A stretch of 64,000 nt of DNA from an uncultured Bacilli bacterium (GTDB taxonomy: Bacteria; Bacillota_I; Bacilli_A; RF39; UBA660). The first letter of the stretch is position 1, and each line of letters starts with the position of its first letter. Below, in pieces: positions 303 through 56,106 of the stretch. Location of the stretch: positions 70,176 through 134,175 of the forward strand of contig CALVVF010000001.1 in assembly GCA_944363785.1 (NCBI GenBank), given 5' to 3'. Below the pieces are notes generated by a model. The model had not been told where the DNA came from. It did no database searches and worked only from the letters and a program-made list of their open reading frames with translations. Made by a program: the position numbers and the translations under genes.

Positions 303-332
303 AAAAAACGACTTATCATTAGTCGTTTTTTT
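303..332. terminator. Bidirectional rho-independent terminator between convergent genes
   Basis: Perfect 7-bp stem AACGACT/AGTCGTT (307-313 and 321-327) with a 7-nt loop. It is flanked by an A-run (303-308) and a T-run (326-332) and overlaps the stop of the minus-strand ATPase gene. Confidence 0.7.
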
Positions 333-1563
333 CATCTTCACTTTCGATATTTAATTCCGCTACTTTAGAATCAGCATCATCTTCAATTTCTACTAATTTA
401 TAGACTTCTTCAAAAGTAGTGTATCCTTTTAATACTTTATCTAATCCATCTTGAAGAAGAGTAATCGTATGATTTTCTCCATATACGAACTCACGTAATG
501 TCTCTTTATCCGTATCTTCTTTACTGATGATATCTCGGATGTCTTCATTGATTAGTAGTACTTCTTGAATCGCAATTCTTCCTAAGAAACCATTAATACA
601 ATGTTCACATTTATTGGCTACCCACATTTCATTAACATTCTTTCCTAAAGCATCTTTGAATACCTTTTTTTCGTATGGAGTAGTCGGTCTAAGTGTCCTA
701 CAGATTGGACATATTCTACGAGCTAACTTCTGAGAAATGATTCCCTCTAAAGCAGTAGAAAGTAAGTAACGTTCTACATTCATATCTAGCAATCTTTCGA
801 TGGTGGCTAACGAGTTGTTGGTATGGATAGTAGAAAGTACAAGGTGCCCGGTAATAGAGGCACGAACCGCAATTTGCGCAGTTTCAGAGTCACGAATTTC
901 TCCGATTAGAATAACGTTTGGGTCCTGACGCAAAATAGAACGTAATGCTGCCGCAAAGGTCATCCCAATTTCGCTGTTGACTTGAACCTGATTGATTCCC
1001 TCTATATTCATTTCGATCGGATCTTCAACGGTAATGATATTGGTTTCCTCATGGTTTAGTGACTGTAACATAGAGTAAGTTGTCGTCGATTTACCAGAAC
1101 CAGTCGCACCAGTTACTAAGATAATTCCATTTGGTACAGCAAGCATCTGTAAGACTTTTTCAAAATTGACCGGTGAAAAGTCCAAACTATGTAATCCCTC
1201 TAAACTCTTACTATAATCGAGAATACGAATAACGACTTTTTCCCCTTCGTTAGTCGGTAGTACCGAAACACGCATATCTAGGTCAATATTATCAATTCTT
1301 CCTTTAATCGCTCCATCTTGTGGTAGGCGGTTCTCCGTAATATTCATCCCAGAAATCAACTTAACCCTAGTGACAACATTTCTCGCATTATCCTTTGGAA
1401 TAATAGTATGATCTTGTAAATTACCATCTACACGCATTCTAATTTTTAATCCATTTTCTAATGGATCAAAGTGAATATCAGAAGCTCTAGCTTTAACCGC
1501 AACTAAGATAATCTTATTTACTAAATCTACTATAGGTATATTTTCTACATCATATTTAACCAT
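319..1563 (-). CDS. GspE/PilB-family secretion/pilus assembly ATPase (ComGA-like, 414 aa)
   Basis: Walker A GATGSGKSTT, Asp/His boxes and the tetracysteine motif CPICR...CEHC typical of GspE/PilB/ComGA (absent from PilT). No long N1 domain. Confidence 0.85.
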   Translation of the reverse strand: MVKYDVENIPIVDLVNKIILVAVKARASDIHFDPLENGLKIRMRVDGNLQDHTIIPKDNARNVVTRVKLISGMNITENRLPQDGAIKGRIDNIDLDMRVSVLPTNEGEKVVIRILDYSKSLEGLHSLDFSPVNFEKVLQMLAVPNGIILVTGATGSGKSTTTYSMLQSLNHEETNIITVEDPIEMNIEGINQVQVNSEIGMTFAAALRSILRQDPNVILIGEIRDSETAQIAVRASITGHLVLSTIHTNNSLATIERLLDMNVERYLLSTALEGIISQKLARRICPICRTLRPTTPYEKKVFKDALGKNVNEMWVANKCEHCINGFLGRIAIQEVLLINEDIRDIISKEDTDKETLREFVYGENHTITLLQDGLDKVLKGYTTFEEVYKLVEIEDDADSKVAELNIESEDEKND

Positions 1564-1689
1564 TTCTTTATCACCTATGTCCTATCCCTTTTCTTTTTAT
1601 CTTTCTATAAATTTATTTTCCCTATGGTATTTTACACTAAATTATTATATAATAAATCTGGAAGATAATCAATAAAGGAAAGTGAATTT

Positions 1690-2310
1690 ATGAAAAGAAT
1701 AAAACAAGGGGGGTTTGTCCTTGTTGAAACATTAATTGTAACTGTATTTGTCATGTCTATTTTTGTTTTTGTTTACAGAAATAGTGTACCGATGATCGGT
1801 CAATATGAAAGGATGCAAAAGTTCGATGATATCGATAGTGTCTATGCTGCTGATATGATGAAAAAAATGATCGAAAACTATATTGATTTTACAGTGATCG
1901 ATCAGAAATTACAAAATGCAACTTATATAGATATCAGTAATTGTAATGATACCACGTACTATCGGGATTCGAGTTATTGTACAAAGTTAAAAAATAATTT
2001 ACATATCGATGATACCGATCTTGTTATTTTAACGAAGTATAATCTTTCGACGACTTTACCGGGAACAAATACTAGTTTTCGTAGCTATGTGAATGAAAAT
2101 GAATATTTTGATTCTGGTAAATTAAGTAATTTCCGTGATTATTTAAGAACAGTTGCCGATAATGAACCTTTTTATAATCCGAGTGATGCGAATAATAAAG
2201 CCGTAGGTCTTTATCGTTTATTTATTACCCGTTCTGTTCCCTTAATTGATGGTACAACAGAAACTAGGTATGCAAATATTGGCATCTATAAGAGTAAATA
2301 TGGAGGTTAG
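1690..2310 (+). CDS. Type IV prepilin-like protein (206 aa)
   Basis: N-terminus MKRIKQGG|FVLVETLIV has a charged leader, Gly at -1, Glu at +5 and a hydrophobic helix. This is a class III prepilin peptidase signal. Confidence 0.7.
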   Translation: MKRIKQGGFVLVETLIVTVFVMSIFVFVYRNSVPMIGQYERMQKFDDIDSVYAADMMKKMIENYIDFTVIDQKLQNATYIDISNCNDTTYYRDSSYCTKLKNNLHIDDTDLVILTKYNLSTTLPGTNTSFRSYVNENEYFDSGKLSNFRDYLRTVADNEPFYNPSDANNKAVGLYRLFITRSVPLIDGTTETRYANIGIYKSKYGG

Positions 2311-3887
2311 TGAGTATGAAGAAATTGAATAAAAAGGGCATGACTGTAATTGAAGTTGTATTAACCTTTGCTTTGATTATGATCATAGTAGCGAGTATTT
2401 TGTCTTTGATTATGAATTATCGAGGCAAAACACAAACAAATTTAACTTACTTAGATCTGATGACCTATAAAAATACACTGACCAAAGAGATCCAAGATGA
2501 TATCTTAAAATATGGTATTGCGGACATTAATCATGAGGGAGAGTGTACTGATCCCAAAAATGCTGGTAAATTTAGTTCCTGTAGTAATATTGTATTTAAA
2601 ACGGGAGTAGAAAAGATATTAGCCGTTTCCAAGATCGATATTGCAGATAGAGAATCTGTTTTAAATAAATATATTCGCTATGGCGATACGAATCATCCTA
2701 TCGATGATTCTCTACCACCTACGATTCCAAGTGGTAGACAACCTGGTGAGTTTCAGACAGTGTTTGTAAGTGATTCTGACTTTTTATCAGTAGATAGTAC
2801 CATTTTATCGGATGGTACCGAAATTAAAATCTATTCTATCGATATTCAAATTGAACACATTGATTTCGATCAAGATTTTGGTATTCATATCGTTGCCACC
2901 AACAATGATATTCTAAATTCAAATTCTTATACAAAGGAGTTTGCCTATACGGGAGATGTTCAAAGCTTTATTGTCCCTGTAACAGGTACTTATCGTATTG
3001 AATTATGGGGTTCTTCTGGTGGAGACATCGGTCCATATCAAGGGGGATTAGGCGGATATACGAGTGGTTATATCCAACTTGAGGAAGGACAAGCCCTTTA
3101 CTTTTACGTCGGTGGTGAAGGTTCACAAACAACAACCGGTGGTTGGAACGGCGGTGGTAACTTAAATCCAGGTGAAGAATTATACGGTTCCTCTGGTGGA
3201 GGTTCAACCGATGTACGTCTCGTCTCTGGAGCATGGAACAGTTTTGATAGCCTAAAATCGCGTATTATGGTAGCCGGCGGCGGTGGAGGAGCTAATTATC
3301 GTAACAGTACTTCCGCTACAGATTTAATTCTTTATGGTTCTGGTAATGGTGGAGCTGGAGGTTGCTTAAATGGCGATGATAGCAGTTGTAGTGGTCTTAG
3401 CGAGCAGTATCAAGCATCAAATGGCTATACAAGCCACAATGAATACACCGTAGGTAGTGGTGGTGCTCAAATTCATGCTGGTGCCAATCGAAGTTATGAC
3501 GCAAGTAATACCTTACTTAATTCCTCAACGACAAACGGCTTTGGAATTAGTGATCTAACCCTTGCCCAAAGTGGTGCTGGTGGTGGTTGGTATGCCGGTG
3601 GTAACGGTACCCATGGTGGAGCTGGCGGAGGTAGCTCATATATTTCTGGACATGATGGTTGTAAAGCGATTTCCCAAAGTTCAACAGCTGATGCCATTAC
3701 GCATACTGATAACTCAGAATACATGAATTTCCTTTTCACAAACACCTTAATGATCGATGGCGATGGTTACAAATGGACAACTGAGAAAACATCTGAGCGT
3801 GTCTCGATGCCAAAAAATGGCGTAACCAATGTAGATGTCGGAAATGATGGTAATGGTTTCGCTAAAGTAACTTATTTAGGCATTTAG
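2310..3887 (+). CDS. Large prepilin-like protein with C-terminal glycine-rich domain (525 aa)
   Basis: N-terminus KKG|MTVIEVVLTFALIMIIV carries a prepilin signal with Glu at +5. Residues ~210-460 are Gly-rich ([46 protein letters not shown]) in the style of Pfam Gly_rich domains. Its start overlaps the stop of the upstream gene (ATGA). Confidence 0.65.
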   Translation: MSMKKLNKKGMTVIEVVLTFALIMIIVASILSLIMNYRGKTQTNLTYLDLMTYKNTLTKEIQDDILKYGIADINHEGECTDPKNAGKFSSCSNIVFKTGVEKILAVSKIDIADRESVLNKYIRYGDTNHPIDDSLPPTIPSGRQPGEFQTVFVSDSDFLSVDSTILSDGTEIKIYSIDIQIEHIDFDQDFGIHIVATNNDILNSNSYTKEFAYTGDVQSFIVPVTGTYRIELWGSSGGDIGPYQGGLGGYTSGYIQLEEGQALYFYVGGEGSQTTTGGWNGGGNLNPGEELYGSSGGGSTDVRLVSGAWNSFDSLKSRIMVAGGGGGANYRNSTSATDLILYGSGNGGAGGCLNGDDSSCSGLSEQYQASNGYTSHNEYTVGSGGAQIHAGANRSYDASNTLLNSSTTNGFGISDLTLAQSGAGGGWYAGGNGTHGGAGGGSSYISGHDGCKAISQSSTADAITHTDNSEYMNFLFTNTLMIDGDGYKWTTEKTSERVSMPKNGVTNVDVGNDGNGFAKVTYLGI

Positions 3888-4825
3888 ATAATAAATAAAT
3901 ATAAAATAGATACAAGTATAGCACAAATTAGCGCATGCAATAAGCGACTAAAAAAGAAATACTTGTATTTTATTTTGCTTCCACTAAGGATACTAAGTAC
4001 TTGCATATGAACACTTAACCCACCAAACGAAGTAAAAATCCCCATCCAAATTAATTTAGCAAGCTCTGAAATAGGAAGAGCACTCATGTACTTTACCCCT
4101 TGAGTCATCTCTAAAATCCCACAGATAATCGCTTTTAAATACGGATCAAAAGTAAATACCTGTTCTAATATTGTCGATAACACCAAAAACACAGTAACGA
4201 TTCCTAAAAGCAAAAATAAAGTACTAACAGCATCTTGAATACTATTCGTTAAAGCGCCCCCTAAAGAAGGTCTAGAAGTAGAAGACGGAAGTATATAGGA
4301 CTTAGATTGATAATTTCTATCTCTTTTAGAGACTAAACACCCAACCATAATCCCAGATGCCACATGAGAAAATAAAAGAATAACTCCTAATTGAATATTT
4401 CCTAAAAGTAAACTTCCGATCATACCTAGGATAAATAAAGGATTAGAATAATGCGTAAAACTAAGTAACCTTGAAGCTTCTTCTGTTGTGATTAATTTCT
4501 TTTCCCATAGTTCTTTCGTATATTTCGCCCCACTTGGAAATCCCGATATTAAACTGATCGCTAATACAAAACTACTTTGTTTAGGTTGTGAAAATAACCG
4601 TGGCATAATTCTTCCTATCGAATGAGATAAAACGTCGACAAACCCATATTGAAGGAGTAAATTAGACACCACAAAAAAAGGAAATAAAGAAGGAAACAAA
4701 TTCTTCGTCCAAATCGTAAGAGAAAAGCTAACTGCTTCGATCACTTGATCAGAAAAAACAATAATAGCCCCAGTAATTGTCAGAAGTAGACAGATAAATA
4801 GATGCTCAGTGATTTTTTTGCTCAT
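3884..4825 (-). CDS. Polytopic membrane protein, YlbJ-like (sporulation integral membrane/nucleoside-recognition type)
   Basis: 313 aa with multiple TM helices. Sits beside the ylbL homolog, as in the B. subtilis ylbJ-ylbL locus. Shorter than B. subtilis YlbJ. Confidence 0.35.
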   Translation of the reverse strand: MSKKITEHLFICLLLTITGAIIVFSDQVIEAVSFSLTIWTKNLFPSLFPFFVVSNLLLQYGFVDVLSHSIGRIMPRLFSQPKQSSFVLAISLISGFPSGAKYTKELWEKKLITTEEASRLLSFTHYSNPLFILGMIGSLLLGNIQLGVILLFSHVASGIMVGCLVSKRDRNYQSKSYILPSSTSRPSLGGALTNSIQDAVSTLFLLLGIVTVFLVLSTILEQVFTFDPYLKAIICGILEMTQGVKYMSALPISELAKLIWMGIFTSFGGLSVHMQVLSILSGSKIKYKYFFFSRLLHALICAILVSILYLFII

Positions 4826-12102: not shown

Positions 12103-13095
12103 ATGCATTTTAAAAAGAAACTACAGATTGTATTCCTTCTTCTTTTTAGTTTATTTCCATCTATAGTATTTGCTTATTCTGATTATGTTATACCAGGTGG
12201 AGAAAATATCGGGATTAAGATGAATGCCAAATATGTTTCCATTGTCGGCTTTTACGAAGTAAACGGTACGTATATCGGGGAAAATGCCGGTTTTAAAGTA
12301 GGAGACATGATCACAGAAATTAACGGTGAAAAGGTAGATTCTATCGATCAGATGATCCGTTTGGTCGATAAATACAAAAATGAAGAAATAACCGTTAAAT
12401 TTATCCGTGGTAATGAAGAAAAATCCACAACTTTAGCTTTAGAAGTCGACGAAAGTGGAATTTATAAGACCGGATTGTACGTAAAAGATCAGATTAATGG
12501 TATTGGTACACTGACTTACATCGATCCCAATAGTCGGATCTATGGCGCATTAGGACATGAAATTGCCGATAAAAATACATTACAAAAAGTAGAAATTAAA
12601 GATGGAGAAATCTATACCTCAGAAATAACCGGAATTAAGCCGTCAAAAGATGGAGAACCAGGTGAAAAACAAGCCAAAATTTATCGTGATGAAGCAATCG
12701 GAAATATCGAAGCGAATGAAGAAAGCGGTATCTTTGGTACCATAACGAGTGAGTTTTCAGCGAGTGACGCTATCGAGGTAGGGAAACCAGAAGATGTCAA
12801 ACCTGGAAAGGCGACGATCAGAACCGTAATCGATAAAGACAATATAGAAGAGTTTGATATTGAAATCTTAGAAGTCGATAGAACAAGTACAACCAAAAAC
12901 ATTCTGTTTGAAATAACCGATGCAGAATTATTAGAAAAAACCGGAGGAGTAGTTGCCGGAATGAGCGGTAGTCCAATCATACAGAATGGAAAAATCATCG
13001 GAGGTGTTACCCATGTCGTCGTTAATGACTCGGATAAGGGATATGGTATTTTTATTACGACAATGTTAGAAGAAGGAGATAAAAAGAGTGGCTAA
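12103..13095 (+). CDS. spoIVB: SpoIVB-type sporulation serine peptidase (S55), 330 aa
   Basis: Signal/TM, PDZ domain (VIPGGENIGIKM...GFKVGDMITEINGEKV) and the S55 catalytic region GMSGSPIIQNGKIIGGVTHVV. Confidence 0.8.
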   Translation: MHFKKKLQIVFLLLFSLFPSIVFAYSDYVIPGGENIGIKMNAKYVSIVGFYEVNGTYIGENAGFKVGDMITEINGEKVDSIDQMIRLVDKYKNEEITVKFIRGNEEKSTTLALEVDESGIYKTGLYVKDQINGIGTLTYIDPNSRIYGALGHEIADKNTLQKVEIKDGEIYTSEITGIKPSKDGEPGEKQAKIYRDEAIGNIEANEESGIFGTITSEFSASDAIEVGKPEDVKPGKATIRTVIDKDNIEEFDIEILEVDRTSTTKNILFEITDAELLEKTGGVVAGMSGSPIIQNGKIIGGVTHVVVNDSDKGYGIFITTMLEEGDKKSG

Positions 13096-14781: not shown

Positions 14782-15399
14782 ATGAATAGAAAAAAAATAA
14801 ATAAAGACAAGCTATTGGCACAAAAAAAGCAATATCTATTTTTAATTACGATTATGGCACTAGGCATACTTGCAGGTATTTTATTTGTTTTCTTTATCAG
14901 TAGTGAGGATAAAACATTATTATTAGATAACTTAAATCATTTTTTTACTAGTATTAAAGAGAATAAATTAAATTATACAGATAGTCTAATCAATAGTATA
15001 TCCTCTAATATACTATCTATTATATTAATCTGGTTATTAGGTATATCTGTAATAGGGATTCCTTTTATCCTTGGGTTTATGATCTTTAAAGGATTTGTAT
15101 TAGGGTTTTCCATTAGTTCTATTCTAGTAAATTATGGTTTTAAAGGAATATTAGTCGCGATTAGTTATATTTTTCCCCATCATATTATTTATTTAATTAT
15201 GTGGCTATTATTAGGTTTCTATGCACTATCTTTTTCTTGTAAATTATTTAAACTATTATTCTTAAAGAAGAATGTAAACTTAAAAGAACACTTCAGAAAA
15301 TATTTAAAAATACTAGTACTCTGTCTATTAGTTAGTTGTATTCTTTCTCTTTTTGAAGTATACGTTACACCTAGTTTGATAAATCTGTTTATTTTCTAA
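14782..15399 (+). CDS. spoIIM: Stage II sporulation protein M-like integral membrane protein (205 aa)
   Basis: Size, N-terminal Lys-rich segment and 5-6 TM helices match SpoIIM/DUF95 architecture. Placement is among sporulation genes. Confidence 0.5.
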   Translation: MNRKKINKDKLLAQKKQYLFLITIMALGILAGILFVFFISSEDKTLLLDNLNHFFTSIKENKLNYTDSLINSISSNILSIILIWLLGISVIGIPFILGFMIFKGFVLGFSISSILVNYGFKGILVAISYIFPHHIIYLIMWLLLGFYALSFSCKLFKLLFLKKNVNLKEHFRKYLKILVLCLLVSCILSLFEVYVTPSLINLFIF

Positions 15400-17434: not shown

Positions 17435-18054
17435 AATAAATAGAATAGGGGAAGCATCAACAACTCCCCTATTTATTTTTTCTTTTTTTTTACCCTATTA
17501 CTATATTACTACCCTTTGCTTATGATTAATTCTATATAACCCTATATATTTCATTCAATTCATTTTAATAAAACAATCTATATAGTAAGTAAGGAATACA
17601 GTAATACTTAAATAATGGATTAACTATGTTTTATAGTGTTCTAATGATTAATCGATCAATTAGCCAGTTAGGGTAAGATTAAATTAAATTAACGTTATAT
17701 AGTATAGAAAAACATGTTTTAAATGGATAATAAGACCATAGATAGATAAATAAAAAGTAATCAATAGTATAATAAGTATGATCCTAAATAATAAATAATC
17801 ATATTCATTATATATAATATATAATAATCAATCATTTTAAATAAATACATTTATAGGATAAGTTATCGATTAATTATAAGCTACAGAGAATAAATTTTAA
17901 AGCATTTAACTAGGTATTATATAGTAAATTAAGGAGAAAATTATCTTCTATCGTTACTTCGTATAATTAATATTATGTTAACTTCTTAAAAGTGAACTAT
18001 ATTATTATGTATATAATCCCCTCAATTGTCCATATTATTAATGGAGGTTTTATC

Positions 18055-18234
18055 ATGAATAATAATCAAAAGATTAAATGTCATGTTAGCTCTTGCCAAT
18101 ATCAAGATTGTAATTGTTGTACTTTAACTGAAATACAGGTTGGTTGTAGTGATCAATGTCAAAATGCAACTAATCAAGAACGAACAGTATGCAAGAGTTT
18201 TAAATGTGATAAGAAAAATAGCACTAATTCGTAG
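18055..18234 (+). CDS. Small cysteine-rich DUF1540-like protein (59 aa)
   Basis: IKCHVSSCQYQDCNCCTLTEIQV ... TVCKSFKC resembles two DUF1540 C-x-V-x2-C-x-Y half-motifs. GGAGG at 18043-18047 lies 7 nt before ATG 18055. The track ORF 17992 start is probably too long. Confidence 0.55.
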   Translation: MNNNQKIKCHVSSCQYQDCNCCTLTEIQVGCSDQCQNATNQERTVCKSFKCDKKNSTNS

Positions 18235-18236
18235 TG

Positions 18237-19403
18237 CTATTTTAATTTATCTAAAAAGCCAGTTCCAATTAATGGTTGCATAGTATCAAAGTTTTGGGTA
18301 ATTGTTGCCCCAATATTTGCCATCGAGTCTAAAATATCTAATTTTTTAGGCTCTTTTAAGTTTCTACCAAATATAAGAACAGGAACATTTTCTCTAGTAT
18401 GTCCATTGCCTGGGAATGTTGGATCACAACCATGATCAGCAGTAAGGATAAGTAAATCATCCATATCGAGTTTATTGATGATCATAGGTATTTCTACATC
18501 GAACTCTTCTATTGCTTTAGCATAGCCTTCTAAATCACGTTTATGCCCATATTCTTGATCAAAATCATTCAAATTACATACACATAAACCTGTAAAGTTC
18601 TTTCCCATGATATCCGTTAATTTATTAATCGCTTCTGTATTATCTTTAGCTTTAATCTTTTTAGTAATCCCTTCCCCATCGAAAACATCCGCAATTTTAC
18701 CAATCGAAATTACTGATAATCCTCTCTCACTTAATAAATTAAAAATACTTTTCGTTGGAGGTTTTAACGCAAATTCACATTTTTCATTCGTAAACTTAAA
18801 GTTACCAGGTTTTCCTGTAAATACCCTAGCAATTACCCTACCCACTTTTAACTCTTCAGTTAAGGTAATTTGTCTTATTTTTTCTGCATATTCATATAAT
18901 TTAGCTACCGGTACAATATCCTCATGCGCCGCAATACATAAATTAGATCCATTTGAAGTATAAAGAATTAAAAAACCATATTCTAAATGTCTTTCTCCTA
19001 ATTCATTGATAATATCTAATCCATTAGCATTCTTATTCCCAATTACTCGGCGCTGAGTAATATTTTCTATTTTATCCAATAATTCTCTTGGAAAACCATT
19101 TTCTGTAAATTGTTTAAATGGTACTAAATTTCTAACACCCATCAATTCATAATGCCCAGTCAAGGTATCTTTTCCTGGATTAGTGGGACGAGCAATCGTA
19201 TAATACGCTTCTACATTAGGATTTTCATCCATATTTAAGGTATTTAGAAACCCTAACTTTTGTAAGTTAGGAACGAATAGATCATATTTTTCTTTAATAT
19301 GACCAAGTGTATTTGCTCCTTGATCCCCATAGTTATTCGCATCCAGTGCCTCCCCTACTCCTAATGAATCCATTACTATTAAAAATATACGTCTAAATTT
19401 CAT
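18237..19403 (-). CDS. deoB: Phosphopentomutase
   Basis: 388 aa. N-terminal metal-binding MDSLGVGE signature of DeoB. Adjacent to xerD as in B. subtilis ripX-drm. Confidence 0.9.
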   Translation of the reverse strand: MKFRRIFLIVMDSLGVGEALDANNYGDQGANTLGHIKEKYDLFVPNLQKLGFLNTLNMDENPNVEAYYTIARPTNPGKDTLTGHYELMGVRNLVPFKQFTENGFPRELLDKIENITQRRVIGNKNANGLDIINELGERHLEYGFLILYTSNGSNLCIAAHEDIVPVAKLYEYAEKIRQITLTEELKVGRVIARVFTGKPGNFKFTNEKCEFALKPPTKSIFNLLSERGLSVISIGKIADVFDGEGITKKIKAKDNTEAINKLTDIMGKNFTGLCVCNLNDFDQEYGHKRDLEGYAKAIEEFDVEIPMIINKLDMDDLLILTADHGCDPTFPGNGHTRENVPVLIFGRNLKEPKKLDILDSMANIGATITQNFDTMQPLIGTGFLDKLK

Positions 19404-19405
19404 CT

Positions 19406-20302
19406 TTAATCATCGTCCTTTCTTGGGTGATATTCTTCATAATCATTTCTAACTTTTTGATTGGTAATATGGGTATAAATCCTAGTCGTTGCGATATCTG
19501 TATGTCCTAACATCTCTTGAATTACTCTAAGATCTGCTCCATTTTCTAACAGATGAGTAGCAAAGCTATGTCGTAAAGTATGGGGAGAAACATTAGGATT
19601 TAAATTCTTTTTGATTAAAAGCTCTTTTAAGATCTTAAAAAAACCTTGCCTAGTAATCGGTTTACCATGATTATTTAGAAATAATTCAGGATAGCTTTTC
19701 TTCTTTTCTAAAAGTACTCTTTTTTCTAAATATGCGTGTAGAGCTTCAATAACATAGTCATTAATAGGAACAATTCTTTCTTTTCTACCCTTTCCTGTAC
19801 ATCTTACAGTACAGTTAATCATATCGATATCGTTTAACGTTAAACTTAATAATTCACTAATTCTAAGTCCTGTTCCGTATAACAATTCTAACATAGCTTT
19901 ATTTCGATAGTCAAATGGTGTATTTAAAGGAATATCTAACAGTTGATCTACTTCTTCTGGTGTTAATGTATTAGGCAGTTGTCTACGTAATTTAGGACGT
20001 TCAATATTCTTAGAAACATCTTCTTTTAAATAACCGATTTTTAAAAAATACTTATGAAAATTCTTAATTACCGTAATCGCATGAGCAATCGATTGTGGAC
20101 TGATCTGCTTGTCTTTTAAATAGATTAAATAAGAAGTAATATCTGCTGTTTTTACTTCTTTAATATCCGAAATATTTTTCTCATGTAAAAAAGTACAATA
20201 CTTTTCTAATTCTAAACGATAAGATTCTTTAGTATTCATTGTTAAATGTTGTTCGACTAATACATACTGTAAATATCCTTCTCTTTGTTTATCTAGTTTC
20301 AT
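19406..20302 (-). CDS. xerD: Tyrosine site-specific recombinase XerD-type (chromosome dimer resolution)
   Basis: R..H..R..Y catalytic set (LRHSFATHLLENGADLRVIQEMLGH...TRIYTH). 298 aa. Synteny with deoB. Confidence 0.75.
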   Translation of the reverse strand: MKLDKQREGYLQYVLVEQHLTMNTKESYRLELEKYCTFLHEKNISDIKEVKTADITSYLIYLKDKQISPQSIAHAITVIKNFHKYFLKIGYLKEDVSKNIERPKLRRQLPNTLTPEEVDQLLDIPLNTPFDYRNKAMLELLYGTGLRISELLSLTLNDIDMINCTVRCTGKGRKERIVPINDYVIEALHAYLEKRVLLEKKKSYPELFLNNHGKPITRQGFFKILKELLIKKNLNPNVSPHTLRHSFATHLLENGADLRVIQEMLGHTDIATTRIYTHITNQKVRNDYEEYHPRKDDD

Positions 20303-20423
20303 AAAACTACCCCACTACATTTAGTATTATACCATACTTTATGACTTCAACTGGCATTTTTTTGTTATTTTTGTTAAAATAATAATGCAGTTATGTTACT
20401 AAATAGAAGGGAAGATGTTTTAG

Positions 20424-21665
20424 ATGAACAAACCTTTAGCACTTAAATTAACGCCTAATTCTATCGATGAAGTAATCGGTCAAAAGCATTTATTAGGAGA
20501 AGGAAAAATATTACGTAATCTAATCGAAAATAAAAAGATATTTTCGATGATTTTATATGGTAAACCGGGGATTGGAAAAACGACAATTGCGCAAGCCATG
20601 GTAAAAGATTTAGGGGTTAGATATCGCTTTTTGAATGCGACAATCAATAATAAAAAGGATTTTGATGTCGTTGTAGAAGAAGCTAAAATGTATGATGGTA
20701 TTGTTTTAATTATGGATGAAATTCATCGTTTAAATAAAGATAAACAAGATCTTTTACTTCCCCAGTTAGAAAGTGGTTTGATTACATTAATTGGGATGAC
20801 TACGTCTAATCCTTATTTTAAAATTAATCCTGCTATTCGAAGTCGTTGTCAAATCTTTGAATTACATGATTTATCTTATGAAGATATTGTTGAAGGCCTA
20901 AATCGAGCGATAAAACATCCGGATTTAGCAGGAATTGAAATAACAGAAGAAGCAATTTCTTATATTGCACATCTTTCTGGAAATGATCTTCGTTATGCCT
21001 ATAATCTATTAGAAATGGCTTTTTATGCGACAAAAGATAAAAAAGTAACTTTAGAGTTACTCAAAAATATAAATAATAAACCCGTTATGATATCGGATAA
21101 AGATGCTTCAGGGCACTATGATTTACTGAGTGCCTTTCAAAAGTCCATTCGTGGAAGTGATGTAGATGCCGCTCTACACTATTTAGCTAGATTAATTGCA
21201 ATTGGCGATTTGGATAGTATTTACAGACGAATGAGTGTGATTTGTTATGAGGATATTGGTTTAGCTAATCCTGATATGGGACCTCGGGTAATGGCAGCGA
21301 TCTCAGCTAGTGAATTAGTAGGATTACCAGAAGCGAGAATTCCGCTTTCTGAAGTTGTTATCGAGCTTGCTTTATCTCCGAAATCAAATACAGCTCATGT
21401 TGCCTTAGATAAAGCCTTAGAAGATGTCGAAACCGGACGTTGTGGAGATATTCCAGATACGATTAAGATACACTCTCCTATCTATAAATATCCTCACGAT
21501 TATCCGAATAACTTTGTTGTACAACAGTATCTACCAGATAATTTAGTAGGGAAAAAATATTATTTACCAAAAGATACATCACCTAATGAGCGAATGCTTG
21601 GTCAAATTAGAGAGAAATTAGATCGTTTAAAAGAAAAAATAGTAATCAGAAAGAAGGATAAGTAG
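20424..21665 (+). CDS. rarA: Replication-associated recombination protein A (AAA+ ATPase RarA/MgsA)
   Basis: Walker A GKPGIGKTT, Walker B IMDEIHR, and a C-terminal MgsA helical domain. Confidence 0.9.
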   Translation: MNKPLALKLTPNSIDEVIGQKHLLGEGKILRNLIENKKIFSMILYGKPGIGKTTIAQAMVKDLGVRYRFLNATINNKKDFDVVVEEAKMYDGIVLIMDEIHRLNKDKQDLLLPQLESGLITLIGMTTSNPYFKINPAIRSRCQIFELHDLSYEDIVEGLNRAIKHPDLAGIEITEEAISYIAHLSGNDLRYAYNLLEMAFYATKDKKVTLELLKNINNKPVMISDKDASGHYDLLSAFQKSIRGSDVDAALHYLARLIAIGDLDSIYRRMSVICYEDIGLANPDMGPRVMAAISASELVGLPEARIPLSEVVIELALSPKSNTAHVALDKALEDVETGRCGDIPDTIKIHSPIYKYPHDYPNNFVVQQYLPDNLVGKKYYLPKDTSPNERMLGQIREKLDRLKEKIVIRKKDK

Positions 21666-21667
21666 TA

Positions 21668-22291
21668 ATGGGAAAAATATTTTGTATTATGGGAAAAAGT
21701 TCAAGTGGAAAGGATTCTCTTTTTCGTATGCTGGAACAAGATTATCCTGACATGAAAGAAATCGTTCTTTATACAACTCGCCCAATTCGTACTGGAGAAA
21801 TAGATGGCGTAACTTATCATTATGTTGATGATGAGACTTACTATAGAATGAAAGAAGAAAACAAAATAGTCGAAGCTAGAAGTTATCATACAAAACATGG
21901 AATCTGGACTTATTTTACTTCTAGTCAGGAAATCGATTTAGAGAATAATAACTATCTTCAGATTAATACTTTAGAGGGATATCAGAAACTAAAAGACTAT
22001 TTCGGAGAAGAAAGTGTAGTTCCTATTTATGTAGAAGTTAAGGATGATGGGGTTCGTTTTCAACGAGCATTAACGAGAGAACGAAACGAAGAACATCCTA
22101 AATATGAAGAATTATGCCGTCGGTTTCTAGCGGATCAAGCAGATTTTAGCGAAGAGAAATTGGCGATAGCTAAAATCGATTCAAATAACCGCTTCATCAA
22201 CAATGATTTTATGAGTTGTTTACAAGCAATTGAAGAAAGAATAAACGAACTATTATCTCAAACAAAAACAAATAAACAATATCATTTATAA
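21668..22291 (+). CDS. Guanylate kinase-like P-loop kinase (207 aa)
   Basis: P-loop GKSSSGKDS and YTTRPIRTGEIDGVTYHYV resemble the Gmk TTRxxRxGExDGxxYxFV motif. May be a Gmk paralog rather than the essential gmk. Confidence 0.55.
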   Translation: MGKIFCIMGKSSSGKDSLFRMLEQDYPDMKEIVLYTTRPIRTGEIDGVTYHYVDDETYYRMKEENKIVEARSYHTKHGIWTYFTSSQEIDLENNNYLQINTLEGYQKLKDYFGEESVVPIYVEVKDDGVRFQRALTRERNEEHPKYEELCRRFLADQADFSEEKLAIAKIDSNNRFINNDFMSCLQAIEERINELLSQTKTNKQYHL

Positions 22292-22371
22292 AGGAAAGAG
22301 CCCCTCTACCCTATATAAATGATTAAATAAAGGAACTGTAATAATCAAAATAATAGAATTTCAAAGAAAAA

Positions 22372-22400
22372 AGCTACTCACAATCGAGTAACTTTTTTTT
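22372..22400. terminator. Bidirectional terminator between gmk-like (+) and dnaJ (-)
   Basis: Hairpin GCTACTC-acaatc-GAGTAAC preceded by an A-run and followed by T8. Confidence 0.55.
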
Positions 22401-23526
22401 ACTTATCATTTTCTCTTACAAAGTGTTTAAACTTATCAATTTCTTTATCACTTAAATCCGTATCGGCAAGCATTTCGATTAACCGTTTTTGCTCTTTAGA
22501 TAGTTTCTTTGGAGTAACTACTTTTAAGACGATATACATATCTCCTTTACGGCGAGTACTATCGTTATGAATACCTTTGCCTTTAATTCGTTGTTTATCG
22601 CCACTTTCACTACCGGCAGGAACAGTTAGATTTACATTTCCATAGAGTGTTGGAATTTCTTTTTTACATCCTAAGATAGCTTCCGTTAAAGTAAGCGGAA
22701 CTTCTAGGTAAATATCATCTTCATCGCGCACATAGAATTCATGATCGTTAACCGTAAATTCGATGTATAAGTCACCATTTGGTCCACCATTTGTTCCAGC
22801 AGAACCTTTACCAGATAATCGAAGTCTGTTACCTGTATCGACTCCAGCAGGTACTTTGATTTCTAACTCTTTTTCTACTCTTACCTTTCCAGTACCATTA
22901 CATTCACTACATTTACGTTTATAACTTTTTCCTTTACCACCGCAGTGTGGGCAGCTTGTTTTCGATAAGAAACTACCAAAAATCGTATGTTGTTCACTAG
23001 TGATCGTACCACTACCATGACAATGTTCACAAGTGGTCTCATCAAAACCACCCTTTCCATGACACTCATCACAAGTTTCCGTCACTTCTAATTCAATTTC
23101 TTTCTTGGTACCATAAACGGCTTCTTCGAACGTTAATGTCATCTTAACGAGAGAATCATTTCCTTTGGTTGCTCGATTACTTCCTCTTTTTGAACCTCCG
23201 CCAAAGCCACCGAAACCACCAAAGATATTATCGAAGATATCGTCATAGCTAAAGCCTGAAAAATCAAAGCCACCGAAACCACCACCGGCTCCTCCAGCAC
23301 CACCTTGGAAGGCAGCATGGCCAAATTGATCATATTGTTTTCTTTTTTCCTCATCCGATAATACTGCATAGGCTTCCTGTACTTCTTTAAATTTTGCTTC
23401 AGCATCAGGTTCCTTGCTAACATCAGGATGGTATTTCTTTGCTAATTTTCGAAAGGCACTTTTAATTTCATCTTGAGAAGCACTTTTCGATACCCCTAAT
23501 ACCTCATAATAATCTTTTTTATCCAT
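22399..23526 (-). CDS. dnaJ: Chaperone DnaJ
   Basis: J-domain with HPD (KKYHPDVS), G/F-rich linker and four CxxCxGxG zinc-finger repeats. Confidence 0.95.
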
Positions 23527-47090: not shown

Positions 47091-48491
47091 TTAGTCATCG
47101 TCAAATAATTCCTCGATATCCTTCAATACATCATCTTTTTTCTTCTGTTCTTCTTGAACAATTTCTTTACTTAGATAGAATTCTTTAGTTTGTTCTAAGT
47201 CGTTTAATCTCTCTTTTTGAGAATCATCAACTTCATCAGTAACGACATCAGATATTGTTTTATCTTCGACTGCTACGTTTGTTTTTTCTTTTTCTTCCGC
47301 AACACTAGAAGAATTGGCCGTATCAACAGTAGATTGTTCATTTTCTTTAGAAGATGTCTCAGTATTTTCCTTTTTATCTTTATTCTTATTATTCTTATTT
47401 TTCTTTGATGTCTTGATATAGAAATAAATACCAAAACCACCAATTAAGAATAAAATTAAACAACCAATACTAACTAATACATATTGTAAAGTACGGTCTT
47501 CTCGACTATCTTCATGGGAGTCAGGCTTTGTAACATGACTCGTACTAGATGAAGTAGAAACGATGTTTTCTTCTTCCTCTTCAGAGCTTTCACTTTCTCT
47601 AGTTACTGTAATTTTATACTCACGTTTATTTCCGTCATTATCACTAACTGTAACAGTTACAATTGAATCTCCTACTTCTAAAGCAGTAGCTCCACTTACT
47701 GAAACACTTGCTTCACTACTAGCTGCTGCAGCCTGTACTGTAATGCTTTCTACTTCATAAGGAACCGTTAGTGTATAGTTTAATAAATCTGGGCTAAAAG
47801 CTTGATCTAAAGTATAATCATCTACACGAAGTAACTTTAAACTAAGATCAACCGGTTCTTCTTTTATAATAGTAAATTTATACCTTTCCACGTTGTTGAT
47901 AAGAACTTTAATAACGCTACCAGTCACTAAGCCACTGTCACCCGTTACTTTTAAATCAACCTTACTTTTGTCAACATTTAACGTAATAGCTTCACTAAGA
48001 TTAATCGTTCCTACATTTGCAGGAATTGTTATCGTATAATCGGTATTATTACTATTAAATGGTTTATCCAATGTCCCCACAGTCAAATTTAATGATGTGA
48101 TTTTTATATCTTCAGGAATTACTGTTACCTCGCATTGGGCAAAATAATCTCCAACATTAGCTTTAGCAGTAATTGTTGCCTTTCCTGGACTTAAGGCTGT
48201 TACTTGCCCAGTTGTTGAATCAACCACTGCAATACTTTTATCCGAACTTGACCAAGTAACATTCGTATCGTCTGTATTTGTAACTGTCGCAACAAGAGTT
48301 TCACTTGTTCCTTCGGTTAATTCCAACTGTCCCTTATTTAACGTTATTGTTATTTTTTCGGTAGCTCCTGAACCACCACCATTACTTCCACCTGTTCCTT
48401 GGCCAGGATCATTTGCCCAAACAATCCCCGGTGTCATTAAAAGTGCAATCGTACTAAAAAGTGCGATACTTTGCTTCAATTTTCTTTTCAT
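47091..48491 (-). CDS. Membrane-anchored surface protein with Big_2 and cadherin-like Ig domains (466 aa)
   Basis: Signal peptide, a Big_2-like domain (TEGTSETLVATV...GKATITA), two cadherin-like beta-sandwich-like segments, a Ser/Glu linker, one TM (LVSIGCLILFLIGGFGIYFYI) and an acidic/Lys-rich cytoplasmic tail. Confidence 0.6.
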   Translation of the reverse strand: MKRKLKQSIALFSTIALLMTPGIVWANDPGQGTGGSNGGGSGATEKITITLNKGQLELTEGTSETLVATVTNTDDTNVTWSSSDKSIAVVDSTTGQVTALSPGKATITAKANVGDYFAQCEVTVIPEDIKITSLNLTVGTLDKPFNSNNTDYTITIPANVGTINLSEAITLNVDKSKVDLKVTGDSGLVTGSVIKVLINNVERYKFTIIKEEPVDLSLKLLRVDDYTLDQAFSPDLLNYTLTVPYEVESITVQAAAASSEASVSVSGATALEVGDSIVTVTVSDNDGNKREYKITVTRESESSEEEEENIVSTSSSTSHVTKPDSHEDSREDRTLQYVLVSIGCLILFLIGGFGIYFYIKTSKKNKNNKNKDKKENTETSSKENEQSTVDTANSSSVAEEKEKTNVAVEDKTISDVVTDEVDDSQKERLNDLEQTKEFYLSKEIVQEEQKKKDDVLKDIEELFDDD

Positions 48492-52787: not shown

Positions 52788-54347
52788 TTATTTTAACTTT
52801 TTTTGGTAAGCACTTATTGCTTCCTCTAATTCTTTATCTGACTCTTCTTTAGCAAATATACCCGTCAAGTTTAAAGTTTCCAGTACACTATTCATATTAT
52901 AATTAGGTAAATTCGTAGTAATTTCTATCATCGCTTGATCAATCGCTTGATTCTTGTTTTCCAAAGTTTTTTCTACTAAGTAATCCGCAATTAAATATTG
53001 ATAACCATTTAATATATCTATTCCATCAATCAAAAAAGCATTTATATAATCATCACACTCTCCATCTACTTCTTTATCATAATCTAAAGGTTCTATTTCT
53101 AAAACAAATGAATCTCTGATTGAAATCTGATAATCTTCAGAAAGTTTCAATAGTTCTTTTTTAGCTTCAAGCATCGCTTCTACTTTTCTTTTTGAAGAAG
53201 CAATTTTTTCTTCACGACGAATTGGTTTCCCTCTACCATAGCTGTTGATATCCAAAAACAAATCAGCTAATGTACAATATAGATCATAATTATTTTTTTG
53301 ACGAGATAATAAATATTCCACTACTTCAGGATCATATCCCCTAGTAATTAAATATTGACCGGCTACTCTTTCATAATAAATAGATGGGTATTCCAATAGG
53401 GAATATGGACCTTGTCCTTTTTGGAGCGATATATAATGAGCAAATTCATGAACTAAATTCAAGAATGTTTTAGCATGATCATAATCGGTTATTTTTAACT
53501 TATAAGCTTGATCTTCTTGATCGAAATAACAGGCAGAATGATTTTTACCATCTTCACCTACTTTTTCATAAATAATATAGTTCTTTTCTTTTAAAGAAAA
53601 ATATAACGAGATCCATTCTTCTGGCACATGAATTTGTTTCAAGAAATCGATAAGTAAATTTTCTGCTTGAGCTGAAGATAATTGAGGAATAGATATTTCT
53701 TTATCTTGATTATCCTCCGAAAGGAAAGACTTAACGAAATTCGTACGCATTTTATATAATATATCATCCATGGTAGTAAAAAAGTCAAGATCATCCTCTT
53801 TAAACATATCTACAGTAAGCTCTAGTAGATAATTATAAACATTAAAACGCTCTGTCTGTTGTAACCAATCAAATAGTTGTTCCTGATTGTTGCGTGTTTT
53901 TAAAAAGGTAGTTAACTCAGTAAATTGATGTTTATTGTCAAAATATTTGAGCGCAATTAGTGTATATAAATCATCTTCTGCATGGTTCGGAAGTAAAAGA
54001 AAAGGGGAAGCTTCTTCATTGACTAAAAGCTTTTTAGACAATAGTTGAATATATAGTGCTGGCATAAGTTCTGGTTGATTAAAGATAGCAAGATATTCTG
54101 GATTACTGATTAGTCGTTCTACTACATAATCAAACAAATCATCGAATTGTTTGACAATATAAGTATTGTTGTCCTCTACTTTTATTTTATCAGGACTGTG
54201 ATGATCGATAATTATTGTCGAATCAACAGAAGTATTAAACAACAATCGATTTGTTTTGATCATGTTAATTATATTTTCTATTTCTGCTTCCTCTTCTTCA
54301 GGATAATATAGATTTATTTTATCAATAGTTTTTAATTTCATTGTCAT
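52788..54347 (-). CDS. HExxH-motif putative zinc metallopeptidase-like protein (519 aa)
   Basis: LVHEFAHYIS (HExxH) in a largely helical protein. AAAGGAG RBS precedes ATG 54347. Immediately downstream of the sigma gene on the same strand. Confidence 0.4.
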   Translation of the reverse strand: MTMKLKTIDKINLYYPEEEEAEIENIINMIKTNRLLFNTSVDSTIIIDHHSPDKIKVEDNNTYIVKQFDDLFDYVVERLISNPEYLAIFNQPELMPALYIQLLSKKLLVNEEASPFLLLPNHAEDDLYTLIALKYFDNKHQFTELTTFLKTRNNQEQLFDWLQQTERFNVYNYLLELTVDMFKEDDLDFFTTMDDILYKMRTNFVKSFLSEDNQDKEISIPQLSSAQAENLLIDFLKQIHVPEEWISLYFSLKEKNYIIYEKVGEDGKNHSACYFDQEDQAYKLKITDYDHAKTFLNLVHEFAHYISLQKGQGPYSLLEYPSIYYERVAGQYLITRGYDPEVVEYLLSRQKNNYDLYCTLADLFLDINSYGRGKPIRREEKIASSKRKVEAMLEAKKELLKLSEDYQISIRDSFVLEIEPLDYDKEVDGECDDYINAFLIDGIDILNGYQYLIADYLVEKTLENKNQAIDQAMIEITTNLPNYNMNSVLETLNLTGIFAKEESDKELEEAISAYQKKLK

Positions 54348-54471
54348 AGCAACTCCTTTTTGGTCCGTATTATACTCCCATTTTTTGAAAAAGGTAAGAA
54401 AGCAAAAAAACATAATCATTTTCCTTCATACAGCGAACAAAGATGGAATAGTTAAACGACTAATCTTTTCA

Positions 54472-56106
54472 TTATGACAAAGTTTTTTTCTTCTGTTTTT
54501 CCTTATCCTTACAACAAGAATGATTTTTGTATTCTGTAGAGCTATTAACTTTTTCCTCTAAGAGATTAATATTATAGTTTAAGAGTAGTGATTCTTTTTC
54601 TTCCTGAGTAAGATGAGAAGCAATAAAGTTAAGCTCTTCTTCACTATAAAACTTAAACAATTGAGAAATTAGTTTCAATTTCTCTGTACTTTCTTTGATA
54701 GATAAAACCCCATTTAATTTTTCATCCGTAATTTTTTCTAAAGTATCGAGAGTTTTTTTGTTCACATTTGGTTTTTGATATAGTGTCCTACAAATTTTAA
54801 TATTTTCTACTGCGCGTTCTGGATTATCTAAATAAAATGCCAATCGATCAATGTTTTTTAATCGTCTTAATTTCTTAATGGCCCCAGCTTCTATTTGATA
54901 TACTCGTTGGCCACTTAGATGGAGCATATCTCCAATTTGATAAGCAGAAAGCGGATCATCGCCACCAAAGCCATATTTCAAACGAATAATTTCTCTTTCC
55001 TTATTATTTAGGTTACTATTTTCTAATAATTGTGTTACCTCGTTTTGTAAAGTGGCAGTGATTAGTTTACCCTCCATTCCTTCTTCTGGTATTGAAACAA
55101 AATCTTCTAATGTCGAATCTCCCTGACCATCAACAAAATTTTGCATGCTAATGGTATCAGATTGCAACATATGTAATTTCGCCGCTTCATCTAAAGAAAT
55201 CTCTAATTTCTGAGCAATTTCATCTAAAGTGGGCTCTCTATTTAATTTTTCTTGTAAAATAGCTTGTGCTTTTCTATATTTATCAATCTTTTGACCAAAA
55301 TAAACAGAAATACGAATATTTTTGGCCTTATTGGATAAAGCCCTTCTAATGGCCTGATGAATAGAAGGAACAGCATAAGACGACAAACGATACCCTTTTT
55401 CTACATCAAAATGATCTATAGCCTTCATTAAACCAATATTTCCTTCTTGAATTAAATCCATAAAAGATAGTCCACAATCAAGATAGTGTTTAGCAATACT
55501 AATCACTAATCTTAAGTTTTTCTCGATTAATATTTTTCTAGCTTCTTGATTACCGTCTCGAAGCATATAAGCCAATTCTTTCTCTTCCTCTGGAGTTAAC
55601 AATACTTTATCTAACGACAAAATATATGTTCTCAACAAATCCGTTTTATCATCAAGTTCAGGAACTACTTCTTTTTCTCTAAAATCTTCATTTTCCTGAA
55701 TAGTATCCATTTTGATACCATGAGATAGACAATAACAATCAACGAGAGATAAAATCACACTATTTTTTAACTTGTCACTACTTTTATTATTTTTTTGTGG
55801 AGCATTATTCGTTTCTACTACTATCTTTAAAAGAGAATTTAAAAGAGAATTACATTCTAGTACCAATTCCCACATATCAGGAGCGGGAGTAAGCTTAATC
55901 TCCTCAAAAAAAGCAGCTAGTTTTTCTAACTCTTTTAAAGCAGCTGGGTAAGAAGAAGCTTCACGCAAATTTTTATTTATATAGCGACAAACAATAGTTA
56001 AAAATAACTTAGGGTTTTCCATATTCGTTTTTATGTAGTCACAAAGCCTCTTTTTCATATTGGCAATAAAGAGCTCTTCAAAATTAGTTTTCTTTGAAGA
56101 TTTCAT
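54472..56106 (-). CDS. Extended, divergent SigA-like (sigma-70 family) sigma factor, 544 aa
   Basis: Regions 1.2-2.4 (LTPEEEKELAYMLRDGNQEARKILIEKNLRLVISIAKHY...DLIQEGNIGLMKAIDHFDVEKGYRLSSY), region 3 (IRISVYF...LDEIAQKLEIS) and region 4.2 (LSAYQIGDMLHLSGQRVYQIEAGAIKKLRR). About 170-aa N-terminal and ~130-aa C-terminal extensions. Region 2.3 reads AVPSIHQA in place of the WWIRQA tryptophans. Confidence 0.7.
   Translation of the reverse strand: MKSSKKTNFEELFIANMKKRLCDYIKTNMENPKLFLTIVCRYINKNLREASSYPAALKELEKLAAFFEEIKLTPAPDMWELVLECNSLLNSLLKIVVETNNAPQKNNKSSDKLKNSVILSLVDCYCLSHGIKMDTIQENEDFREKEVVPELDDKTDLLRTYILSLDKVLLTPEEEKELAYMLRDGNQEARKILIEKNLRLVISIAKHYLDCGLSFMDLIQEGNIGLMKAIDHFDVEKGYRLSSYAVPSIHQAIRRALSNKAKNIRISVYFGQKIDKYRKAQAILQEKLNREPTLDEIAQKLEISLDEAAKLHMLQSDTISMQNFVDGQGDSTLEDFVSIPEEGMEGKLITATLQNEVTQLLENSNLNNKEREIIRLKYGFGGDDPLSAYQIGDMLHLSGQRVYQIEAGAIKKLRRLKNIDRLAFYLDNPERAVENIKICRTLYQKPNVNKKTLDTLEKITDEKLNGVLSIKESTEKLKLISQLFKFYSEEELNFIASHLTQEEKESLLLNYNINLLEEKVNSSTEYKNHSCCKDKEKQKKKTLS

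Follow-up and report, generated by a model that had tools for sequence, protein, structure and literature searches.

Gene content of the locus

Within a 64,000-nt stretch of contig CALVVF010000001.1 from an uncultured Bacilli bacterium (the whole stretch is called the window below), we analysed a locus at positions 319–3887 that encodes a putative type IV filament assembly ATPase and two pilin-like proteins. The three open reading frames (ORFs) were found where an earlier note on this DNA had placed them, with the ATPase gene on the minus strand diverging from two prepilin-like genes on the plus strand. The PilB/GspE-type ATPase gene (319–1563, minus strand) encodes 414 aa and was assigned from its PF00437 match, its motifs and an ortholog alignment. 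The gene for pilin-like protein 1 (pilin 1, 206 aa; 1690–2310, plus strand) was recognised from a class III signal, a homolog alignment and an AlphaFold2 (AF2) model. The gene for pilin 2 follows on the same strand and has two parts, a pilin module (2316–2915; residues 1–200 of a 523-aa product), defined by a class III signal, AF2 and a family profile, and an ALK/LTK-type glycine-rich domain (GRD; 2931–3887; residues ∼206–523 and the stop codon), defined by PF12810, AF2 and Foldseek.

The assembly ATPase

Against the T2SSE family (PF00437) the ATPase scored 397 bits (E=6.7e-119; cutoff 24.9), and its sequence contains a Walker A motif (GATGSGKST), Walker B, Asp and His boxes and a C-x2-C...C-x2-C zinc motif. 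Across 81 aligned full-length orthologs, conservation was at least 98% for the four cysteines (C285, C288, C319 and C322) and for the Walker, Asp and His boxes alike. Among solved structures, residues 7–391 align with residues 116–497 of Vibrio cholerae GspE (4pht; E=2.9e-104), indicating that the protein consists of the N2 domain and C-terminal core of an extension ATPase, without the N1 domain. The C-terminal tetracysteine zinc motif separates extension ATPases from PilT. The GspE/PilB tetracysteine motif reported in the earlier note was borne out, the four cysteines being present. A PilB/GspE-type identity is supported by the match to GspE (E=3e-104) far exceeding that to PilT-type retraction ATPases, which reach only 1e-33; the PilB and PilF cores match at about 1e-93.

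The ATPase falls under every NCBIfam equivalog cutoff, scoring 466.6 for GspE (cutoff 630.25), 432.4 for PilB (675.65) and 268.9 for ComGA (300). Judged from these scores, its domains place it in the PilB/GspE family, without making it a GspE, PilB or ComGA equivalog. The description "ComGA-like", which the earlier note had used, finds no support, since the ComGA score is below its cutoff and the GspE and PilB scores are much higher. The N2 domain and C-terminal core, the boxes and the zinc motif are shared with the PilB/GspE ATPases of known systems (V. cholerae EpsE, 1p9r/4pht; Thermus PilF; Geobacter and Myxococcus PilB), from which the window ATPase differs in having no N1, MshEN or GSPII N-terminal domain.

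Orthologs in related loci (L002 6769–8838, minus strand; L012, L014, L064, L077 and L082) carry variable, low-complexity C-terminal tails rich in P, E, T and Q, extending 0–278 aa past the conserved core; the tail of the window ATPase is acidic and only 24 aa long. The 689-aa ortholog of L002 was considered as a fusion to a platform protein and rejected, as its extra 300 aa are low-complexity P/E/T/Q-rich sequence with no transmembrane segments and no Pfam match.

Prepilin signals and pilin 1

The leaders of pilin 1 (MKRIKQGG/FVLVE) and pilin 2 (MKKLNKKG/MTVIE) are basic, with Gly at −1, a hydrophobic residue at +1 and Glu at +5. When all six frames of the window were scanned for G-x4-E with a hydrophobic stretch after it, only two sites had a fully hydrophobic tail (15/15), namely the adjacent sites of pilin 1 and pilin 2; one unrelated site scored 7/15. 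Across 27 pilin 1 homologs, down to 27% identity, G8, L11, E13 and T14 are invariant. Gly−1 (G8) and Glu+5 (E13) of pilin 2 are likewise invariant in 33 full-length homologs, and also in 23 pilin 2 modules with identities down to 22%. From these alignments we conclude that the class III signals of both proteins, to which the earlier note had drawn attention, are genuine. The two families are homologous to each other over their N-terminal ∼106 columns (hhalign, probability 94.7%, E=6e-8). The AF2 model of pilin 1, with a predicted local distance difference test (pLDDT) of 83.2, shows a helix at residues 7–42 followed by a mixed α/β head, and the pilin 1 profile gave nothing significant against PDB sequences.

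In pilins, Glu+5 matters for subunit packing. Its conservation bears on the possibility that the class III signals do no more than anchor surface proteins in the membrane or mark them for export, with no long filament being built, in the manner of an archaeal bindosome or a very short wall-spanning pseudopilus. Such an arrangement would suit the many large proteins with pilin-type N-termini that are encoded by scattered orphan genes in related genomes, some of them without Glu+5, and the lack of a major pilin in the locus. The invariance of Glu+5 in both pilin families of the locus speaks against it, as does the dedicated, highly constrained extension ATPase that always lies adjacent, and we regard it as improbable.

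The pilin module of pilin 2

The ORF listed for pilin 2 starts at GTG 2310 and encodes 525 aa. The start codon is most likely ATG 2316, which lies 9 nt past a GGAGG sequence and 5 nt past the pilin 1 stop codon and gives a 523-aa product, as in public gene calls. In the AF2 model (overall pLDDT 86.7), the pilin module consists of an α1 helix at residues 11–66 followed by nine strands that form a β-sheet head, which finishes at a conserved FGIHIVAT motif. As modelled, the module looks canonical, with the classical lollipop layout. Against solved pilins, the family profile matched the α1 helix of Geobacter PilA-N (E=5.4e-5).

Weak N-terminal matches were also obtained to competence pseudopilins, of pilin 1 to ComGD (E=4e-4) and of pilin 2 to ComGE (E=9.5e-4), and 3 of 23 pilin 2 relatives weakly match PF11773 (ComGE). 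These raise the question of whether the three genes encode the core of a Com-type competence pseudopilus for DNA uptake, with the ATPase as the counterpart of ComGA and the pilins as ComGD/ComGE-like minor pilins. With the Com pseudopilus of Bacillus and Streptococcus (comGA–GG and comC) the locus shares a host among the Bacilli, a short ATPase and these weakly ComGD/ComGE-like N-termini, and conservation of the ATPase at the level of a core gene (see below) would also fit. The locus differs from that system in having two pilins only, with no comGB and no comGC-like gene for a small major pilin, neither of which was seen in any locus searched. The ComGA equivalog score is below its cutoff and far under those for GspE and PilB. 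Furthermore, the ATPase has kept and conserved its tetracysteine motif, which ComGA is not known to possess, and the swapped modules described below (GRD, DUF6273, CBM), which would suit binding or adhesion, fit DNA uptake less well. We consider a competence pseudopilus unlikely; on that reading, the system would owe its conservation to a dependence of these reduced-genome gut bacteria on DNA uptake.

The glycine-rich domain of pilin 2

Residues 225–523 of the 525-aa ORF match PF12810 (ALK_LTK_GRD) with 140.4 bits (E=1.3e-40; cutoff 24.5). The glycine-rich domain noted earlier on the second pilin is therefore real, although its size is ∼300 aa and not the ∼250 aa first given. In the AF2 model the pLDDT of the domain is mostly >90; it is preceded by a short low-confidence linker (residues ∼199–205), with values <50 at residues 201–203. 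Foldseek returned 21 PDB matches at E≤0.001, all of them to ALK or LTK glycine-rich/TG domains (best E=4e-8, probability 1.0), and the modelled GRD is likely to share the ALK/LTK fold, though not tightly. Many of its Gly columns are invariant in 33 homologs. A compositional artefact was ruled out by the PF12810 match, the invariant Gly columns, the pLDDT >90 and the specific ALK/LTK fold matches. A β-solenoid tip is unsupported, as Foldseek returned only ALK/LTK and no solenoid.

The fold of the solved ALK/LTK TG domain combines a TNF-like sandwich with a lattice of polyglycine-II helices. The GRD resembles this domain (PDB 7LS0, 7NWZ, 7NX1, 7N00) in belonging to the common PF12810 family and in having it as the sole significant fold match; it differs in being bacterial and in being carried by a pilin rather than a receptor kinase, with no sign of a cytokine-like ligand. 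In ALK and LTK the glycine-rich domain lies within the conserved extracellular region (PMC10605310).

Pilin 2 orthologs without the GRD end a few residues past the FGIHIVAT motif, so the domain forms a clean C-terminal graft. The view that such a domain is unusual for a pilin was overstated, a class III motif being present in 66 of the 120 best GRD relatives and the architecture having been included before in a published survey. The other relatives among these 120 have SipW/TasA-like signals, or pilin-like N-termini without Glu+5. The latter include the large GRD proteins P0069, P0073, P0074, P0084, P0087, P0097 and P0114 (for example, MKNNKGFVVSAVLYPLL), which may represent another anchor class or a GspK-like subunit. 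One protein, P0110, combines a pilin 1-type N-terminus with a GRD; it is encoded at a separate locus with no adjacent ATPase, and is thus a paralog and not a variant of the ATPase–pilin locus. P0067 and P0094 are orphan glycine-rich pilins encoded amid housekeeping genes.

Two further settings of the domain, or of proteins encoded near the locus, were observed. In Clostridioides difficile phage phiCD505 (NC_028764.1 25734–27299; L092 5986–7551), a 521-aa "glycine rich family protein" matches PF12810 (E=1.3e-46), its gene closing the tail module, downstream of XkdX and ahead of the holin and endolysin; of the 26 phage records with a PF12810 match, 25 are from C. difficile phages. Near the locus in many relatives are genes for proteins of ∼500–750 aa with TasA/SipW-type signals (…GISYAYFT…) and weak matches to DUF6273 and camelysin (Peptidase_M73), as at L001 490–2040 and 2055–3578 (just left of the window start), L004 1001–4455, L016 113–2389, L038 and L055. 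One of these TasA/SipW-type proteins (L016) bears a GRD, so that the same domain occurs under two different export signals.

Conservation and module exchange in related bacteria

A collection holding one genome per species was scanned with the pilin 1 profile; 154 matching stretches were confirmed and 80 loci kept. All 80 come from uncultured gut Bacilli, the labels on the metagenome-assembled genomes (MAGs) varying between Bacilli, Tenericutes and Bacillales, with humans (Hadza, Nepal), chickens and other animals among the sampled hosts. Of named organisms, Ca. Scybalousia (now Alloscybalousia) intestinigallinarum, Bacilli incertae sedis, is the nearest relative. In all 80 loci the ATPase gene lies on the opposite strand about 90–130 bp upstream of pilin 1, and in 76 of them pilin 1 is followed by a pilin 2 homolog.

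Rates of divergence were compared across 16 loci sharing all genes, as median identities relative to the window. The ATPase (79.6%) lies near MutS (77.0%) and LepA (83.3%), with Tmk at 69.1%, HemN at 52.4% and pilin 1 at 49.5%. With an identity of 79.6% against 49.5%, the motor ranks as a core gene under strong constraint, and the pilins evolve in the manner of surface proteins.

The modules borne by the pilins vary from locus to locus. Pilin 2 carries the GRD in only 13 of the 80 loci and is elsewhere a bare protein of 160–210 aa. Alternative modules on pilin 1 or pilin 2 comprise DUF6273, a weak CBM_4_9, Flg_new (Listeria–Bacteroides repeat) together with a GRD, and a Cys-rich extension, and unassigned domains of up to about 620–760 aa are also grafted on to either pilin.

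The divergent intergenic region (1564–1689) was described from consensus matches and conservation, and its promoters are candidates only. Within 1600–1689, the ∼70 nt ahead of the pilin 1 start codon are nearly invariant in five species, with pilin identities of only about 83%. A near-palindromic sequence, ATTATATAAT, provides a consensus match to TATAAT (−10 box) on both strands, and a candidate minus-strand promoter, TTGATT-17-TATAAT, matches at 1672–1644. At the other end of the ATPase gene, a terminator-like hairpin with an 11-bp stem followed by a T run (303–331, minus strand), found by consensus scan only, spans the ATPase stop codon between the ATPase gene and the convergent thymidylate kinase gene (tmk). 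This is the convergent, unrelated gene that had been reported on the far side of the ATPase. On the opposite flank of the locus lie a convergent gene for a YlbJ-like membrane protein, a gene for a SepM/YlbL-type protease and mutS.

The surrounding housekeeping genes keep a conserved order (lepA, hemN, tmk, ylbJ, ylbL/sepM, mutS), and could suggest that the adjacency of ATPase and pilins is itself inherited synteny without functional coupling, the ATPase serving another system. We see only the slimmest chance of this. Like the three-gene arrangement, the right flank (ylbJ, ylbL/sepM) is conserved across the loci; the left flank is variable, with tmk in only 44 of 87 clustered sources (86 loci and the window), and the ATPase–pilin adjacency persists where that flank changes. 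In addition, the divergent intergenic region is short and conserved, and an assembly ATPase beside two pilins is an expected functional pairing. YlbJ and the SepM/YlbL protease were considered as parts of the pilus system and rejected, ancestral Firmicute synteny being the likelier reason for their position, given the ylbJ–ylbL pairing of Bacillus subtilis.

In a distant subclade, orphan genes for canonical pilins were observed 8–9 kb downstream of the locus (L073 19677–20180, L076 11441–13161 and L085 18277–18787; N_methyl E=1e-8), with sequences such as KGFTLIEILAAVV... and MKRKNNKGFTLIEILAAVV...; one of the encoded proteins is >573 aa long and has an Ig-like domain. The presence of such pilins in some related loci suggests that the clade possesses a prepilin peptidase.

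Comparison with known systems

Pilin 2 corresponds to a modular pilin in the sense of Raynaud et al. (2021), as judged from its PF12810 match, the AF2 model and the graft point. The modular pilins of Streptococcus sanguinis, PilB with a vWA module and PilC with a lectin module, carry adhesin modules (Raynaud et al., 2021; PMC8179133). As in those proteins, a class III pilin module leads by way of a short linker into a bulky domain that folds independently and is known outside pilus biology as well; the difference is that the module of pilin 2 is an ALK/LTK-type GRD. The genetic setting also differs, since the S. sanguinis pilins are encoded in one complete pil cluster with pilB, pilC, pilD and pilT, and here the ATPase alone joins the pilins. 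Dataset S1 of the same study lists IPR012902-PF12810 in two proteins and IPR012902-PF12810 x3 in one, uncharacterised there (PMC8179133). InterPro-based surveys would miss pilin 2, because its N_methyl score is below threshold. A literature search on PF12810, bacterial glycine-rich domains and RF39 pilins, for which the searchable literature is limited, returned no characterised GRD pilin and no account of the three-gene locus.

In the tip complexes of type II secretion systems and type IV pili (GspI–J–K; CofB), a bulky pilin-like subunit and a minor pilin plausibly prime and cap the filament (PMC8179133). The locus is similar in encoding a large, non-canonical pilin-like subunit paired with another pilin, and dissimilar in that there are two subunits only and no Foldseek match to GspK, GspJ or CofB.

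Interpretation of the locus

The explanation that we favour, at a rough probability of 60%, is that a clade of uncultured gut Bacilli keeps, in these three genes, the conserved core of a type IV filament system, whose fast-evolving pilins carry exchangeable surface modules. A PilD/ComC-type peptidase, encoded elsewhere, would cleave both leaders after Gly−1. The hexameric ATPase would then act through a PilC/ComGB-type platform, again encoded elsewhere, lifting the pilins from the membrane. The tip of the filament would be occupied by the bulky pilin 2, probably with pilin 1 as its partner, and would display the GRD as a ligand-binding or adhesion module. A tip-adhesin role for pilin 2 may reasonably be inferred by analogy with the modular pilins (PMC8179133), and the occurrence of the GRD on a predicted surface filament as well as in phage tail modules points to a possible binding role.

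A number of results weigh against a filament of this kind. Both window proteins are below the gathering score (21.2 bits) of the prepilin family PF07963 (N_methyl), the check that the earlier note had proposed for them, pilin 2 reaching 14.3–15.9 bits and pilin 1 giving no match. At the level of the families the outcome is more favourable, with matches to PF07963 at E≤1 in 17 of 23 relatives of pilin 2 (best E=2.7e-6) and 3 of 27 of pilin 1. Pilin 1 has no Foldseek match in the PDB at E≤0.001, its head having no significant counterpart among solved pilins, and from the model we conclude that the head has a new or unrecognisable fold. The superposition of the GRD on ALK/LTK is loose, with TM-scores of 0.24–0.42, a root-mean-square deviation of about 14 Å and identities of 14–24%. 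No gene for a small major pilin was found by the six-frame motif scan of the 64-kb window. Finally, the machinery is incomplete as seen, since Escherichia coli GspF and GspO queries gave no match at E≤10 in a phmmer search of all six frames of the window and 86 related loci (∼1.6 Mb). The GspE control in the same search matched the ATPase in 86 of these sequences, at about 1e-105.

That no platform (PilC/ComGB) or prepilin peptidase gene is adjacent, as the earlier note stated, was thus confirmed for the window and the related loci; with the absence established only locally, the label of a minimal module given in that note is at most tentative. Further searches for these two components were equally negative. 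Window ORFs with at least two hydrophobic segments matched other Pfam families (SpoIIM, Yip1, YlbJ and others), the membrane protein families clustered from the neighbourhoods of the 86 related loci were BacA, ZIP, ABC-2, YitT, LytR and others, and the flanking sequence beyond the window (∼8 kb on the left, ∼8.6 kb on the right) contains housekeeping genes only, so that neither component was found in about 82 kb.

It could be argued from this that the three genes are a self-sufficient machine needing neither a PilC-type platform nor a PilD-type peptidase, as the ∼82 kb surrounding them and the 86 related loci yielded no homolog of either, and yet the three genes always occur together. However, no characterised type IV filament system is known to lack a platform protein or a peptidase, split loci are common among such systems, and the absence holds for the surroundings of the locus only; we think it very unlikely that the trio is self-sufficient. 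A broader form of the same idea, to which we would likewise give little credence, is that the trio, as a lineage-defining part of the core genome of this large clade, is a machine for displaying pilins that works with neither a dedicated PilC-type platform nor a PilD-type peptidase, its two tip pilins being hot-swappable carriers of binding domains (GRD, DUF6273, CBM and others). If true, machinery lacking both components would call into question the minimal set of parts now accepted for type IV filaments, an outcome that we judge unlikely. A split locus, with the platform and peptidase encoded elsewhere in the genome, is what the favoured explanation supposes.

Other features of the window

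Several observations were made elsewhere in the window. At 52788–56106 (minus strand) lies a gene for a 544-aa sigma-70 family protein with regions r2/r3/r4 at residues 193–414 and long N- and C-terminal extensions, beside a gene for a 543-aa protein without a Pfam match. An MvaI/BcnI-type restriction endonuclease gene (57936–58691, minus strand) stands amid small unannotated ORFs, possibly as part of a small mobile or defence islet. The gene at 47091–48491 (minus strand) encodes a predicted surface protein of 466 aa, which has Big_2 and Cadherin-like domains and, near residue 332, a hydrophobic segment.

Across ∼17500–22500 the GC skew changes from positive to negative, and the coding strand changes from plus to minus around 18–22 kb. 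This region may be the replication terminus, as the halves on either side resemble converging replichores; a tyrosine recombinase gene is located at 19406–20302 (minus strand). The sporulation-associated genes ylbJ, for an SpoIVB-type S55 peptidase, and spoIIM are present at 3884–4825, 12103–13095 and 14782–15399, respectively, on account of which the organism is probably a spore former, despite the Tenericutes labels on related MAGs.

Significance

What is new here is an uncharacterised module on the known modular-pilin design, in an unusually conserved split locus, and we regard the finding as only moderately novel. Few modular pilins have been studied, and they show how a simple filament gains new binding functions. 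At least 80 species loci with the same ATPase and carrier pilins and a changing module constitute a comparative series for the diversification of pilus tips. For the glycine-rich domain of ALK and LTK, a predicted surface filament and the C. difficile phage tail module provide a bacterial context. As the ATPase is about as conserved as MutS, the filament is likely to be a core, and not an accessory, function in these small-genome gut bacteria.

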